Part shown: piece by piece, positions 14,759-58,468 of the stretch
Layout: each line of letters starts with the position of its first letter
Numbering within the stretch: position 1 is the stretch's first letter
From: a virus
IMG/VR virus record: IMGVR_UViG_3300028569_002824
Location: 32,001 to 96,000 of that record
DNA length: 64,000 nucleotides
Direction: 5' to 3' (one strand)
The notes under the pieces: generated by a model
Seen by the model: the letters and a program-made list of their open reading frames with translations, nothing else
Database searches by the model: none
Told to the model about the DNA's origin: nothing
Translations under genes and position numbers: made by a program

Positions 14759-15162
14759 GTTGTTTCGAGTGTAATAATTTTTGTTAAATTTGTCATACCA
14801 TATTGAGCATCTCTCAGATTTGACTCTACTTTATTTAAGTATTCTACTACGAGTTCGTTGTTGTTAATTTCTTCGTCTATTTTAATAATAACATCATTAG
14901 ACAAAATAGAGTCATTAATAGTTTTAATGTTGAGTGACACTGGAGATTCCGCCTCTAATTTTTGCTTGATTGTTTTTGCAGCCTTATCTTTTGCTTTCTT
15001 GAGCTTTTGTATTTGTTGTTTGTGAAACATTAGTCTTCCAACCCAGTAATGTCTTACTGAAGGCAATGCCATCTGAGCGTCCTTGATGTTGATTTCATCA
15101 AATTTCAAAAACGTTTCGATTTTTTCGTGATATTCGTACATGAGGTTTGATGAGTCAGTCAT
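14755..15162 (-). CDS. uvsY: UvsY-like recombination mediator (start at ATG 15162)
   Basis: Helical ~135-aa protein, FLKFDEINI..LPSVRHYW pattern, upstream of uvsW as in T4-like phages. Confidence 0.75.
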   Translation of the reverse strand: MTDSSNLMYEYHEKIETFLKFDEINIKDAQMALPSVRHYWVGRLMFHKQQIQKLKKAKDKAAKTIKQKLEAESPVSLNIKTINDSILSNDVIIKIDEEINNNELVVEYLNKVESNLRDAQYGMTNLTKIITLETT

Positions 15163-15243
15163 AAAGAGATGTAATTTATAGTATAACCAAACAAAAATAA
15201 AACAACCCAAATAGGCTTTAAATGTCTTTAAGTTCCGGTTATT

Positions 15244-15535
15244 CAGATTGAAGGAGGGAGGTTCCCCATTGCTGAGAAAACCTCCCTGTCTTTGAAATTC
15301 CGTTTAAAACGAGTCTCAGTCGGGGTAACAAGCTTCAAAAAATCCTGTGATTAATATGCCCCCTCGGTTGTCCTGTAAGGGCTGGCTTGAGTGGTCCTGG
15401 CAAATGCCAGACAACGGTCACGCAAATAGCGCACATCGAGAAATGTTTTTAATTTATTAATCGCTGATTCCTGTTTTTTATCTTCCTACGAAGACCTACG
15501 CAAATGCGCTCCGGCTAGTCCTAACAGCGATGTTG
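15244..15535 (-). ncRNA. Unidentified structured non-coding RNA (about 290 nt)
   Basis: GC-rich gap with no ORF in the track. It contains several stems with G-U pairs and a GCAA tetraloop on the minus strand, and has its own upstream promoter (see findings). Confidence 0.6.
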
Positions 15536-15537
15536 TT

Positions 15538-15565
15538 AATATCGTTTACTTAGTATATTTGTCAA
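15538..15565 (-). promoter_or_regulatory. Sigma70-like promoter with an embedded late-type TAAGTA
   Basis: TTGACA (15565-15560), 16 nt, GATATT; TAAGTA at 15552-15547. Confidence 0.6.
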
Positions 15566-15616
15566 CCATATTAAGAAATTATTTTTTTTTTTTATTAATT
15601 TACATTAAATAACACT

Positions 15617-15859
15617 ATGGAATTTCACGAGTTAGTAGAAAAAATCCTACAAGAAGACAATGTATCAGGAGGATCTGGATCAGCGTTCGGTCCAAATGTT
15701 GGATCTACATCTACCACATTTAGCGGAGATAACTATGCCAAGGGTGATGCTAGACGAATAACCGGTGTATTTGATGGAATTTTAACTCGCAATGGAATGA
15801 ATAAAAAAGCAAACAAAAGGAAAGCCAAAAAACGTAAAAAGGACAAAAAATGGAATTAG
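15617..15859 (+). CDS. Small late protein with a basic tail, possible head-internal protein
   Basis: TAAATA at 15606-15611; N-terminus MEFHELVEKILQE; Lys-rich C-terminus. Confidence 0.6.
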   Translation: MEFHELVEKILQEDNVSGGSGSAFGPNVGSTSTTFSGDNYAKGDARRITGVFDGILTRNGMNKKANKRKAKKRKKDKKWN

Positions 15860-16290
15860 GGCACTGGAGATTAGCAGAGGGGATACAACTTAATCTAAGT
15901 GCATTTGGGTTTATTTATGAAATTACAAATAATGCTACGGAACGTCCTAAAAAGTATATAGGCAAAAAGCAATGTGTGTTTAAAGTAAGAAAAAAACCTC
16001 TAAAAGGCAAAACTAGAGCCAGATTAGGAGTTAAAGAATCGGATTGGAAAACTTACACAGGCTCATCTAAAGAGTTAAACGATGATATTAAAAAATACGG
16101 AAAAGAAATGTTCGATTTTGTAATTTTAGAGTGGTGCGATTCAAAATTTGAGTTAGGATATAAGGAAATCAAAAAACAAATAATGGAAGACGTTTTATTA
16201 AGTGAAGATTATTATAATGGAATAATAAATTGTCGCTTGGGACGCGTTCCTAAAGCATTTAATACACGTGAAAGTAAAAGTATTTCCTAA
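15850..16290 (+). CDS. denA: GIY-YIG endonuclease, T4 endonuclease II-like
   Basis: GFIYEITN...KYIGKK...ESDWKTYTGSS..L...YYN. Confidence 0.75.
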   Translation: MELGHWRLAEGIQLNLSAFGFIYEITNNATERPKKYIGKKQCVFKVRKKPLKGKTRARLGVKESDWKTYTGSSKELNDDIKKYGKEMFDFVILEWCDSKFELGYKEIKKQIMEDVLLSEDYYNGIINCRLGRVPKAFNTRESKSIS

Positions 16291-16708
16291 ATCCAGAGTC
16301 TGTGCCATTGACGCCTATCCTTCTTTTGAAACCAGCTTATCTAAGGCGATCCAATTCACCAAAAAGCACGATATAGCAATTAACTCAGCTGACGGAAAAC
16401 GACTAATTTTAGGATTCTTTTTAGATGAAATTGCTAAACACGTCAACGATACAACAAGTTTGTTTCCAAAAGTATTGTTTATGTCTACCAAATATGCAAA
16501 TTCAAAAACAAAGTCTTTTATACATAAACATGTAGTAAAAATATTAGAGCGATTGCCTATTCACTATTGCGGAATTTATGAGCCAACGTCTCCTGATTTA
16601 GAGATGGCTGCTTCGAGTAGCTTAAGTCACACAAAAAACAGTAAGAATTTTAATAGAGCTGTAAATAAATTGAGAATTAAAAATTCCCAACATTTCAGCA
16701 CATTATAA
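16268..16708 (+). CDS. Hypothetical protein
   Basis: 146-aa ORF overlapping the previous stop region. Confidence 0.55.
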   Translation: MKVKVFPKSRVCAIDAYPSFETSLSKAIQFTKKHDIAINSADGKRLILGFFLDEIAKHVNDTTSLFPKVLFMSTKYANSKTKSFIHKHVVKILERLPIHYCGIYEPTSPDLEMAASSSLSHTKNSKNFNRAVNKLRIKNSQHFSTL

Positions 16709-17384: not shown

Positions 17385-18155
17385 TCAAACTTTTAAAGCT
17401 AAATCCCAAATTAGTAAATGAAGACGAGGACTAAAATTAACATGCATGGCTTTTGCATATTCTGCTACAGCTTGTGCTCTGTCAATATGTTCTTGTCTTG
17501 AACCACAGCATGGCATAAACCACACTCGTTGGAGAGGTACGTTTATTCCCTCGTAATCATTAATATATTTTCTCCAAATTTCCTCTATGTCTCGATCTGA
17601 GGTTATGACAAACTTGAATCCCGAATTGTGATCAACATGCCATCTAAGCACTTCTGGTTTATATGTTTTTTCTTCTGGATCGCCATTTGTAGTCAACTTT
17701 GGAGATGTAGTAAAAGTTGCGCAAAATTCTGTTACCCAACGTTCATCAGGCTGAAGAGTAGCATTAGTTTCAAAGTCAATTCGTGGATTGAATCCGTATT
17801 TTTCGTTAAAGGCTTCTATAAACTTAATAAGCTGCTTTTGCTGAATTAAAGGTTCGCCTCCCGTCAACTTGAAAATTGCTCTGTTTCTTAGATGTTCTAC
17901 ATAATTCTTTTCTTCCATCATCTGGAAGATCTCCGCAAAAGTCATTTTATTTTTAACTGACCAGGAAATAAAAGAATCACAACCGTTCGGACTGTTTTCT
18001 GATGCGAACCCCTTGCATGTAAGGTTGCACATCGACATTCTCATGAAAACTGAAGGTTGTCCGACAAATTCTCCTTCCCCCTCCACAGTGTAGAACGTTT
18101 TATCATCTGATAGAATTAACGTTTCTGTTTGTATATCAATATTATTAGTTTTCAT
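17385..18155 (-). CDS. queE: 7-carboxy-7-deazaguanine synthase, radical SAM (start ATG 18155)
   Basis: FYTVEGEG..VG.PSVF.R, CNLTC-x11-CDS, LTGGEP, ETNAT, SPKL, SPRLH. Confidence 0.88.
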   Translation of the reverse strand: MKTNNIDIQTETLILSDDKTFYTVEGEGEFVGQPSVFMRMSMCNLTCKGFASENSPNGCDSFISWSVKNKMTFAEIFQMMEEKNYVEHLRNRAIFKLTGGEPLIQQKQLIKFIEAFNEKYGFNPRIDFETNATLQPDERWVTEFCATFTTSPKLTTNGDPEEKTYKPEVLRWHVDHNSGFKFVITSDRDIEEIWRKYINDYEGINVPLQRVWFMPCCGSRQEHIDRAQAVAEYAKAMHVNFSPRLHLLIWDLALKV

Positions 18156-18615
18156 CTTCTTCGTCTTTTGGTTCTGCGTAAATTGCTGAATTTTGTTCAT
18201 GTTCCCAAACCTCCACTTTAGATACCCAACATCTATGTCTGGTTTCTTCGTTACATTCGAGAAATAATCTTGTTGTATTAAAACACCACTCTGCTGTTTT
18301 CTCAATTCCTACACTACTCATTACTCTAAGATCACAACCTCCTTTTTTGTGTAGATCTTGAAATTCAGCTATTAGTGGATCGTCTGCAGCTATACACAAC
18401 GTGTGATCAAATTGGTGTTGAAGTAGTTGCTTTAGTTCTTTCAAACCACCAAAATTTACTGCCCAATTGCGGTGATCTAATTCAGAACATTCAAACCAAA
18501 ATTTTGCCATCAAGCGGTATCCGTGAACAAATCTACAGTGTGTCCCATCAGCCTTCCATTGCCTAAACGCACACGATCCCAATTCTATTACTTTAGTTGA
18601 TGTATAAGTCCCCAT
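18145..18615 (-). CDS. queD: 6-carboxy-5,6,7,8-tetrahydropterin synthase
   Basis: T-fold motifs HCRFVHGY, NFGGLK, FDHT, GIEKTA and EHEQNSA; adjacent to queE. Confidence 0.88.
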   Translation of the reverse strand: MGTYTSTKVIELGSCAFRQWKADGTHCRFVHGYRLMAKFWFECSELDHRNWAVNFGGLKELKQLLQHQFDHTLCIAADDPLIAEFQDLHKKGGCDLRVMSSVGIEKTAEWCFNTTRLFLECNEETRHRCWVSKVEVWEHEQNSAIYAEPKDEEDEN

Positions 18616-29554: not shown

Positions 29555-29996
29555 TGGTGGAGGTGAGGGGATTCGAACCCCTGTTTTTATAATCTCTGCT
29601 AAAAGATACTACATGCTTTAATGAATTTGACATTTGTTGACTAAAGGCTGTCTTGGCTCATTGACCATGCTTTTTAAGTCTGCCTGTATGTGTGAATAAA
29701 GATCACATACTACCTATGACTAGTTTTACCGCGTTAGTCATCTCACGCAAGAACCTCTGCGTTTCAAAATACTTTTAGAGGATCCAGTATTAGGCTCTTA
29801 AGCTTCGAGAGAATAAGCTTCATCAGCGGTAACGAGAAACTCGCTAGCGTTGTTAAAGATATACTCCGCCTCAGCAAAGAGGTCAGAATTATCAAGTTCT
29901 GCATTTAGGTTTTTAATAGATGTTTAAAGAGGCCAACTATTATCCTCTACATGCACTTTTAGTTTTTAATTATAAATCGAAAACCAGTACACCCCC
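29555..29996 (-). ncRNA. ssrA: tmRNA
   Basis: 5' GGGGGUGUACUGGUUUUCGA and 3' CAGGGGUUCGAAUCCCCUCACCUCCACCA form a 7-bp acceptor stem with G3-U70, a T-arm and encoded CCA. Resume context CUAAAU-GCA. Confidence 0.95.
29798..29902 (-). other. tmRNA tag reading frame: AELDNSDLFAEAEYIFNNASEFLVTADEAYSLEA*
   Basis: 34 codons plus TAA, read from the GCA resume codon at 29902. Confidence 0.8.
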
Positions 29997-58158: not shown

Positions 58159-58314
58159 TTATAAAGAATTGCAATTGTTTTCAATATCTTTTAATTCGTC
58201 CGCGATTTCATTTTCAGTTTTCAATCTGTAGTTGCCGTTTTCCAATTTAATTACAACTCCCTCGGATAGTAAGTAATCCAAGTGAAGTTGGACTTGTTGT
58301 TCTGTATTGTTCAC
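58159..58314 (-). CDS. Small hypothetical protein (51 aa, GTG start, not in the ORF track)
   Basis: MNNTEQQVQLHLDYLLSEGVVIKLENGNYRLKTENEIADELKDIENNCNSL behind TTGACA, 16 nt, TATAAT. Confidence 0.55.
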   Translation of the reverse strand: MNNTEQQVQLHLDYLLSEGVVIKLENGNYRLKTENEIADELKDIENNCNSL

Positions 58315-58468
58315 ATATTATATTATATTGGGTTTTATTTGTATGTCAAACGAAACACCAAAATTATATAAACTAAAACCGTCTAAAGTCCGACTTATCT
58401 TCGTGGCTAAAATACTTTAATAATCAATGCATAAGCTTCTTCTAGTGATTTTTGGTCACTCATATATC

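Follow-up and report, generated by a model that had tools for sequence, protein, structure and literature searches.

What occupies a long gap without open reading frames (ORFs) directly upstream of a uvsY-like gene in the genome of a T4-like phage? The gap lies in IMG/VR record IMGVR_UViG_3300028569_002824, of which we analyzed positions 32,001-96,000, a stretch of 64,000 nucleotides (nt) that will be called the window. It runs from 15211 to 15616 (406 nt) and is the second-largest ORF-free gap in the window; only the gap that holds the phage's transfer-messenger RNA (tmRNA) is larger. The third-largest (58175-58468) has 294 nt and a GC content of 0.31. A first look at the letters of this DNA, made without database searches (hereafter the sequence-only reading), had singled the gap out as the largest besides that of the tmRNA and as GC-rich, and had proposed a novel structured phage RNA there. 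Both observations are borne out, the GC content being 0.44-0.45 in the element against 0.29-0.37 in its flanks. As for the proposal, we are almost certain that the gap contains a real RNA-level element, a conserved core of about 310 nt on the minus strand, between the uvsY-like gene and a divergent ORF of 80 amino acids (aa). A novel structured RNA is supported by 46 covarying homologs, a conserved promoter, the absence of any Rfam match and the absence of a conserved ORF.

Homologs were collected from several sources. A UvsY-like protein search in IMG/VR gave five loci. Four DNA pattern scans, built on conserved parts of the sequence, yielded 11 and 31 loci in viruses, 27 metagenome stretches and 4 stretches in GTDB genomes. 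A synteny search by UvsW alignment added two diverged members (L083 and L084), and a search of the records behind the loci added L151. The covariance model (R1) was built from 42 of 49 distinct sequences, three truncated and four chance rows being left out, with a hand-checked nested structure; all 46 sequences were then re-aligned to it. These 46 distinct, full-length homologs score 225-350 bits and all come from phage-like contigs of freshwater, estuarine or marine samples. Each record, among them that of a complete 217-kb relative with terminal repeats (G004), has a single copy. Pattern hits that the model did not match were regarded as chance (L047, L065, L066 and L067 on high-GC bacterial or soil contigs, and L153). 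A blastn search of 50,697 GenBank phage records with the element and its surroundings found no match to the element; the single match, of 50 nt, was elsewhere in the 1.6-kb query, to an E. coli phage. The RNA is confined to one clade of T4-like phages, which we consider uncultured because the nearest cultured relatives of its UvsW are cyanophages at only 32% identity. Within this clade the RNA is better conserved than the proteins beside it. The non-coding stretch of L003 has 88.4% identity over 319 nt; amino-acid identity there is 68% for UvsY and 71% for UvsW.

If the structure matters, paired nucleotides should change together, and this is what is seen. The sequence-only reading had named homologs and covariation as its check, and the covariation is strong. 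Compensatory changes are present in 26 of the 51 pairs of the nested model, and 91.9% of its cells are paired, versus 44-53% when the partners are slid by one to three columns; both figures are somewhat flattering, because the alignment follows that model and the sequences share ancestry. None of 500 shuffles reaches the observed values. With P2, P2c, P3 and P5 included, giving a model of 13 helices, 30 of 65 pairs show compensatory changes and 96.5% of cells are paired. Of the added helices, P2c and P3 were not favored by the fitting, since they were absent from the model behind the alignment. The strand is fixed as well. G-U is the majority pair at two positions of P3a (46 and 39 of the 46 sequences) and at three stacked pairs of P7 (28-40 of 46), and these pairs would be C-A on the other strand; the earlier choice of the minus strand, made on such pairs, was right. 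Judged from the alignments, the RNA is under strong purifying selection on its pairs and junctions.

A few points weigh against taking the statistics at face value. The shuffle controls overstate significance because the sequences are related, and some of the compensatory changes are single events common to a subclade, such as the change from GC to AU in P3, seen in nine sequences. The folding energy is also no better than that of shuffles on either strand: the single-sequence minimum free energy is -85 kcal/mol, with z = -1.59 for the minus strand and -1.67 for the plus strand. On this point, which the sequence-only reading had named as a possible refutation, its proposal would not have passed.

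Could the conservation be of something other than RNA? The gap might be a DNA feature with iteron-like protein-binding repeats, since its two co-varying direct repeats, described below, could be sites for one protein, or it might be a small conserved protein gene, about a third of the homologs having an ATG ORF of 33 aa. Only RNA is expected to show compensatory changes at 30 of 65 pairs and G-U pairs that are specific to one strand. An ATG ORF of at least 20 aa is missing from 12 of the 46 sequences, their lengths are spread over the three remainders modulo 3 (15, 17 and 14), and insertions and deletions ignore the reading frame, so that no conserved short ORF, which the sequence-only reading had named as a possible refutation, explains the region. 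Covariation largely refutes these explanations, and we find them scarcely credible.

The RNA that emerges is composed differently from the three separate domains first proposed. It consists rather of a three-way junction, a pseudoknotted core and a 3' domain that bears a repeat. The hairpins named in the sequence-only reading are all where it had placed them, and covariation among the 46 homologs supports seven of its nine helices; these include the closing stem of domain 1, CGC/GCG, UCUUC/GAAGA, the second CGC/GCG, CUGGC/GCCAG and the 13-base-pair hairpin. For GUUGUC/GACAAC the pairing stands and the nested placement does not. The GACAAC strand sits in the 13-nt loop of a hairpin that had been missed, P3a, which makes this helix (P2c) a pseudoknot. 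The proposed closures of the second and third domains are the two helices without support. The first of them, UUUCUCG/CGAGGGG, is at best CUCG/CGAG, which is invariant, and its G run pairs with GCCCUU in P3a instead. The other, UUGAAG/CUUCAA (P5), shows no compensatory change in the 46 sequences, has 79% of its cells paired and is broken in at least eight sequences.

The two long-range helices of the core deserve a closer description. In P2c, 99.6% of cells are paired and two pairs are compensatory: one changes from U-A to C-G in L083 and L084, and another position has C-G, U-G and U-A in 22, 19 and 5 sequences. A nested alternative, GUUGUC with GGACC-AC, was rejected, for it has no compensatory change and leaves the same two sequences unpaired. 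P3, which the sequence-only reading did not have, encloses P3a and P4 and is paired in 100% of cells, with G-C changed to A-U in nine sequences and C-G to U-A in one, again two compensatory pairs. The loop of P3a holds the partner strands of both P2c and P2 (15372-15364). P2 itself (UCG with CGA) is invariant and so only a candidate helix. The A-rich linker before it is partly deleted in L005, L037 and L039. In P7, three pairs are compensatory and six vary on one side, from U-G to U-A or C-G. Three additional helices suggested by RNAalifold (CCG/CGG, GAG/UUU and UCG/CGG) are doubtful, the first because it is broken in L083 and the other two because they are invariant or implausible. Past about 15227 the homologs can no longer be aligned.

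The 3' domain has a peculiarity of its own. Two imperfect direct repeat units of about 35 nt, some 66 nt apart, flank P7. Aligned with each other within a sequence, the units score 7.1, against 2.7 ± 1.4 for shuffles, and in 25 of 46 sequences their likeness is reached by at most 5 of 200 shuffles. They also change together. One pyrimidine position per unit is U in both units of 26 sequences, C in both units of 18 and mixed in two. The AU-rich segments that follow ACGGA and CCGGA are more alike within a genome (7.37) than between genomes (5.42), a difference that none of 10,000 permutations reached (38 homologs were compared, L084 having no anchor motif). In L040 and L151, which share a variant 3' region, both CGG sites are altered alike. 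No strand complementary to both units was found. The co-variation might reflect binding of one dimeric partner at two sites, alternative pairings, or gene conversion. The features are collected in the table, where RNA position p corresponds to window position 15545-p.

Table. Features of the RNA, its promoter and its surroundings, in window coordinates.
Feature	Position	Strand	Basis or remark
Structured RNA, conserved core	15227..15534	minus	covariance-model match, 306 model positions, cmsearch 336.4 bits
Domain 1, three-way junction	15460..15531	minus	covariation
P1	15531-15525 with 15466-15460	minus	4 of 7 pairs compensatory
P1a	15515-15513 with 15496-15494	minus	2 of 3 pairs compensatory
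Inner hairpin of domain 1	15509-15506 with 15501-15498	minus	
P1b	15493-15490 with 15485-15482	minus	4 of 4 compensatory, up to 4 pair types per pair
A-rich linker and P2 5' strand (UCG, 15439-15437)	15436..15459	minus	alignments
P2a hairpin	15420..15432 (15432-15429 with 15423-15420)	minus	3 of 4 pairs compensatory
P2b hairpin	15398..15409 (15409-15406 with 15401-15398)	minus	3 of 4 pairs compensatory
P2c pseudoknot, 5' strand GUUGUC	15410..15415, pairs with GACAAC 15372-15367	minus	covariation
P3 long-range helix, 5' strand CAAGC	15385..15389, pairs with GCUUG 15333-15329	minus	found by RNAalifold
P3a hairpin	15358..15382 (15382-15377 with 15363-15358)	minus	GCCCUU with GGGGGC; 3 of 6 compensatory, 100% paired
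P4 variable hairpin	15341..15352	minus	4 of 4 pairs compensatory, 89.5% paired
P5 candidate helix, 5' strand, doubtful	15334..15338, with 15252-15248	minus	would cross P3; 79% paired
P7 hairpin, 12-13 base pairs, GGAGG/CCUCC base, variable loop	15256..15286	minus	94.7% paired
P8 weak AU hairpin after CCGGA	15218..15231	minus	sequence; longer hairpin in some homologs
Repeat unit 1	15287..15324 (RNA 221-258)	minus	near-invariant CCCGACYGAGACUC and ACGGA
Repeat unit 2	15223..15258 (RNA 287-322)	minus	pyrimidine tail CCCUCCYUCRAUCU, CCGGA, AU-rich segment
-35 box TTGACA	15560..15565	minus	consensus scan and homologs
-10 box GATATT, 16-nt spacer	15538..15543	minus	consensus scan and homologs
uvsY-like gene, 135 aa	14755..15162	minus	Pfam UvsY, via homologs
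TATAAAT box directly upstream of uvsY, late-promoter-like	15174..15180	minus	sequence
Divergent 80-aa ORF, start facing the RNA promoter	15617..15859	plus	syntenic in clades with and without the RNA
Phage tmRNA	29555-29996	minus	Rfam, 98.5 bits; not called by ARAGORN
tmRNA promoter	30046-30019	minus	TTGACA, 16-nt spacer, TACAAT; about 20 nt upstream of mature 5' end

Is this an RNA that is already known under another name? At gathering thresholds, the only match of Rfam 15 (4227 models) in the window is the tmRNA. With permissive filters, the best three matches between 15100 and 15700 have 14-18 bits and E values of 2.4-5.5, which is chance level, and the cmscan check proposed earlier thus yields no family. 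The element is not a tmRNA; no tmRNA model matches at the locus, and ARAGORN finds nothing in the window. RNase P RNA has no model match even at E up to 10, and a comparison by eye with its conserved regions was unconvincing. The preQ1-I riboswitch was considered because of a hit of 14 bits (gathering threshold 39, E 4.7) on the P1b hairpin and the A-rich tail. That riboswitch has a short hairpin with a loop of about 11 nt and an A-rich tail that forms an H-type pseudoknot, and the loop of P1b has just 4-5 nt in 45 of the 46 homologs. Nothing held up by eye in favor of RNase P, signal recognition particle RNA, 6S RNA, a group I intron, CsrB-like GGA repeats, the ACGR loops of mini-ykkC, boxA or T-loops. 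Nor was the RNA found described in the literature, as far as titles and the opening parts of abstracts tell, supplementary files excluded. On the strength of this literature search and of Rfam, we take it to be a previously undescribed structured RNA.

How would such an RNA be made? A predicted sigma-70-type promoter would place the start of transcription 1-5 nt before helix P1. Thirty of 39 homologs have TTGACA or TTGACT as their -35 box, and in 34 of 39 a -35 box of the TTG type is found 30-32 nt upstream of where the model starts (counts for promoter, terminator and 3' flank use 39 of the 46 homologs, six near-duplicates and the truncated L068 being excluded). The region upstream is retained in the 39 loci checked. 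The sequence-only reading had seen here a TTGACA with an embedded late element, TAAGTA, in the same layout as upstream of the tmRNA. The TTGACA is real and conserved, and the tmRNA promoter is similar in having TTGACA and a 16-nt spacer. The TAAGTA is a different matter, being spacer sequence that is present in about a quarter of the homologs and does not equal the T4 late-promoter consensus, TATAAATA; the box before uvsY may be likened to a late promoter. At the tmRNA, a second TTGACA comes directly after the CCA end, and no terminator is evident by eye in the following 75 nt or so, where no scan was made.

There are hints that the locus is transcribed. Twenty runs recorded as RNA, each from a separate study, hold some sampled words of the stretch; in the run listing of 21 sequencing runs the shares are 0.03-0.24, and small shares or uncovered parts are no evidence either way. 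Contigs were aligned from four of the runs. These metatranscriptome contigs, from four studies and with 1-4 differences, cover 15313-15518 (X2), 15320-15514 (X3), 15323-15476 (X4) and 15380-15450 (X1). Their ends inside the RNA probably reflect strain variation and not transcript ends. Together with a further contig, described below, they hint weakly at transcription and at a degree of read-through.

What surrounds the RNA may help in deciding what it does. In essentially all sufficiently long loci the order is queE-like gene, tmk, three genes on the other strand (ORF146, GIY-YIG and the 80-aa ORF), RNA, uvsY, (nudix gene) and uvsW, and the RNA heads a block of minus-strand genes of about 39 kb. 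The Pfam UvsY family matches 8 of 16 UvsY-like homologs (best E 2.7e-07), the copy in the window being below threshold. Sister clades, whose UvsW is 41-55% identical, have the same divergent arrangement, with 70-240 nt (496 nt in one case) between the small ORF and uvsY. In these loci, and across five of their records (52-132 kb), the RNA model finds nothing, with G004 as a positive control; the search covered 63 of 80 UvsW-synteny loci, the other 17 being contigs already known to carry the RNA, and gene context was compared in 16 of the 80. Weak hits in two sister-clade loci, L114 (E 0.002) and L111 (E 0.043), are short or fragmentary and on the opposite strand, and were taken as chance. Since the sister clades are without it, the RNA is a clade-specific gain or loss between the early promoter and uvsY. 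In an alignment read by eye, those clades have a promoter-like pair, TTGTTT/TATTAT, directly before uvsY, so that the RNA looks inserted into an early 5' untranslated region.

Other things have been inserted around it. Seven loci (L013, L022, L032, L034, L037, L040 and L058) have 0.7-1.2 kb with an extra co-oriented ORF of 212-373 aa exactly between RNA and uvsY, and keep the RNA; the ORF of L034 weakly resembles S-adenosylmethionine-dependent methyltransferases, below Pfam cut-offs. The interval has the appearance of an insertion hot spot for genes. On the upstream side, several loci carry inserts of 0.5-2 kb, and there too the RNA is intact. The RNA is likewise intact where a convergent gene follows it by about 60 nt (L151:74-1441 of record G001), which encodes a TnpB/Cas12f-like protein of 455 aa with a Cas12f1-like TNB domain (E 1e-11).

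Two observations on the neighboring genes may be added. The plus-strand cassette at 15617-16708 encodes the 80-aa protein with its Lys/Arg-rich tail, a SegE-like GIY-YIG protein (Pfam E 2.6e-29) and a 146-aa protein with a weak Rit1 DUSP-like match. As the cassette is syntenic in all clades, including those lacking the RNA, the GIY-YIG gene behaves as a fixed core gene and not as a mobile homing endonuclease. On the minus strand at 17385-18305, next to an ORF like thymidylate kinase (PHROG), there is a radical-SAM-like ORF of 306 aa (Fer4_12, E 7e-07), possibly QueE-like, which would hint at 7-deazaguanine metabolism.

Several suggestions can be made regarding the function of the RNA, and the evidence is divided between two of them. 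The one that we favor, with confidence that is evenly balanced, is a discrete RNA acting in trans. Such an RNA would be made early in infection and set free through processing or weak termination, as must also be the case for the phage's own tmRNA. Working through its tertiary fold, it would bind a protein or some component of the host machinery, and the pair of co-varying repeat units would offer two sites to one two-fold binder. We favor this suggestion because of the size of the RNA and its conservation above that of neighboring proteins, because it is kept where DNA has been inserted on either side of it and where a convergent gene follows, because sister clades express the same genes without it, and because of the parallel with the tmRNA gene.

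A good deal weighs against it. The neighboring genes occur in clades without the RNA as well, and no partner protein was identified. A scan found no intrinsic terminator for the RNA in the window, and a canonical terminator-like site lies downstream in only 1 of 39 homologs, nine more hits being inside P7 and the tail. A small RNA gene bounded by a terminator is thereby rejected, and read-through into uvsY is likely for lack of a canonical terminator. A co-oriented gene comes next in 45 of 46 loci and begins about 20-65 nt after the core in 9 of 10 loci looked at. One contig from an RNA library spans 15132-15282 and so joins the 3' part of the RNA to uvsY; assembled contigs are silent on strand, ends and level, and they may derive from carried-over DNA. 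The earlier description of the RNA as stable and not just a leader goes beyond what these facts show.

If transcripts do continue into uvsY, the RNA could be a cis-acting leader, with which the early transcript of the leftward uvsY, (nudix), uvsW block would begin as a structured 5' portion. It might make RNA polymerase resistant to termination, as put and EAR do, it might attenuate transcription, or it might respond to a ligand or protein by a change between alternative pairings of the duplicated 3' units. We consider this a serious contender, and less probable than a discrete RNA. Its place directly after a conserved early promoter, at the start of a long co-oriented block and seemingly inside an early untranslated region, is what one would want of a leader, and no canonical terminator follows in 38 of 39 homologs. 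The genes inserted in the seven loci are co-oriented, and their distance from the RNA is about 20-65 nt, just as for uvsY in other loci; the G-rich and C-rich tracts among the duplicated 3' units could pair in more than one way. A leader has to be squared, however, with the absence of any matching riboswitch or leader family in Rfam (preQ1-I being the best, and weak), with some 310 highly conserved, pseudoknotted nt, which is large for a leader, with expression of the same genes in sister clades lacking the RNA, with the promoter-like box that uvsY retains, and with the intact RNA before the convergent gene of L151. No pair of mutually exclusive helices has covariation support. Control by sequestration of a ribosome binding site is unlikely, since the phage genes show no use of Shine-Dalgarno sequences: in the genome of this phage (G000), such motifs upstream of crude gene calls are at background (13 of 145, versus 7.8%).

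The location next to uvsY invites another suggestion, made already in the sequence-only reading. In T4, ori(uvsY) is primed by a transcript, and the ColE1 RNA II is a folded primer precursor. The RNA might likewise form a persistent R-loop in the AT-rich DNA before or within uvsY and prime the leading strand, with UvsW removing it later and folding controlling the formation of the hybrid. The position upstream of uvsY with uvsW downstream agrees with this, as does the strong conserved promoter, and in about 22 of 39 homologs, by eye, a G-rich tract and then a T-rich stretch follow 20-50 nt after the core. That tract is missing in the window and in about 17 of 39 homologs. The DNA after the RNA is AT-rich, in a genome that as a whole has 65% A+T. 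The check by GC skew turned out negative, there being no inflection of the cumulative skew at 47 kb of the genome, in what is a weak test for T4-like phages. The element is missing from sister clades in which uvsY and uvsW are arranged in the same way, and the T4 origin needs just a promoter and an unwinding element, not 300 nt of covarying, pseudoknotted RNA. An origin primer is, in our view, quite improbable.

A more adventurous version of the trans-acting RNA starts from translation. The phage has 18 transfer RNA (tRNA) genes outside the window (97.5-114.5 kb of its genome), and its complete relative G004 encodes ribosomal protein bS21 (G004:C1:216525-216686; Pfam Ribosomal_S21, E 6e-17). 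This lineage invests heavily in translation. A search for the RegA family found no match in either genome or in 14 control genomes, and is uninformative because the controls were likewise without a match. The background level of Shine-Dalgarno-like motifs suggests that the host initiates translation without Shine-Dalgarno pairing. The CCUCC in the base of P7 and in the tail is the core motif of the anti-Shine-Dalgarno sequence, and an invariant GGAGG/CCUCC hairpin with a CCUCC-containing tail is conspicuous in a phage that makes no use of such pairing. The RNA could be a free-standing machine of a kit for the takeover of translation, with the tmRNA, the tRNAs and bS21, or else a new ribozyme. 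In the former case the pseudoknotted core would present the invariant single-stranded pyrimidine tail after P7, with its CCUCC, as a mimic of the 3' end of 16S ribosomal RNA, and could capture bS21 or another ribosomal protein, a host factor or a defence nuclease. We regard this as unlikely. If it is true, such a takeover RNA or ribozyme would be a new functional class of phage RNA.

Whatever its function is, the RNA seems worth pursuing. Large pseudoknotted RNAs with near-invariant junctions are rare, and those that have come to be understood are usually ribozymes, riboswitches or the cores of ribonucleoproteins. This one is well defined, with 46 distinct sequences, a testable model of 13 helices and a mapped promoter, and it belongs to an abundant, uncultured lineage of freshwater and marine T4-like phages. 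Its locus is one for which T4 biology offers concrete hypotheses on origin firing and early transcription. A co-varying internal direct repeat is unusual and suggests either that the RNA switches its conformation or that it has a two-fold binder. Should the RNA turn out to be a leader, it would still be a new regulatory RNA, and one of unusual complexity.

We know other systems with which the RNA can be compared. Rfam contains classes of large structured orphan RNAs, such as GOLLD, ROOL and the raiA type. Unlike them, the RNA described here has no Rfam match up to E 10, is smaller (about 310 nt) and is limited to one T4-like clade with fixed synteny. It shares with them an intergenic location, a promoter of its own, a length of several hundred nt, many covarying helices, pseudoknots and highly conserved junctions, as well as a distribution largely in phage and metagenome DNA and a function that cannot be deduced from context. 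With T4 ori(uvsY) it shares a promoter-driven transcript toward or into uvsY with uvsW nearby, and RNA II is a precedent for a folded pre-primer; in contrast to both, there is no origin signal in the GC skew, no homology, and no such element in sister clades that have the same genes. The processive antitermination RNAs, put of phage HK022 and EAR of Bacillus, are three to four times smaller, and no Rfam match connects them with our RNA. The position of the element is nevertheless that of put and EAR: it is promoter-proximal, follows directly on an early promoter, opens a long operon-like block of co-oriented genes and has no terminator behind it. The nearest comparison is within the same window. 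Unlike the phage's tmRNA, the element has no tRNA-like ends, no reading frame for a tag and no match to the tmRNA model; like the tmRNA, it appears to be a structured RNA driven by a sigma-70-type promoter with TTGACA and a 16-nt spacer.

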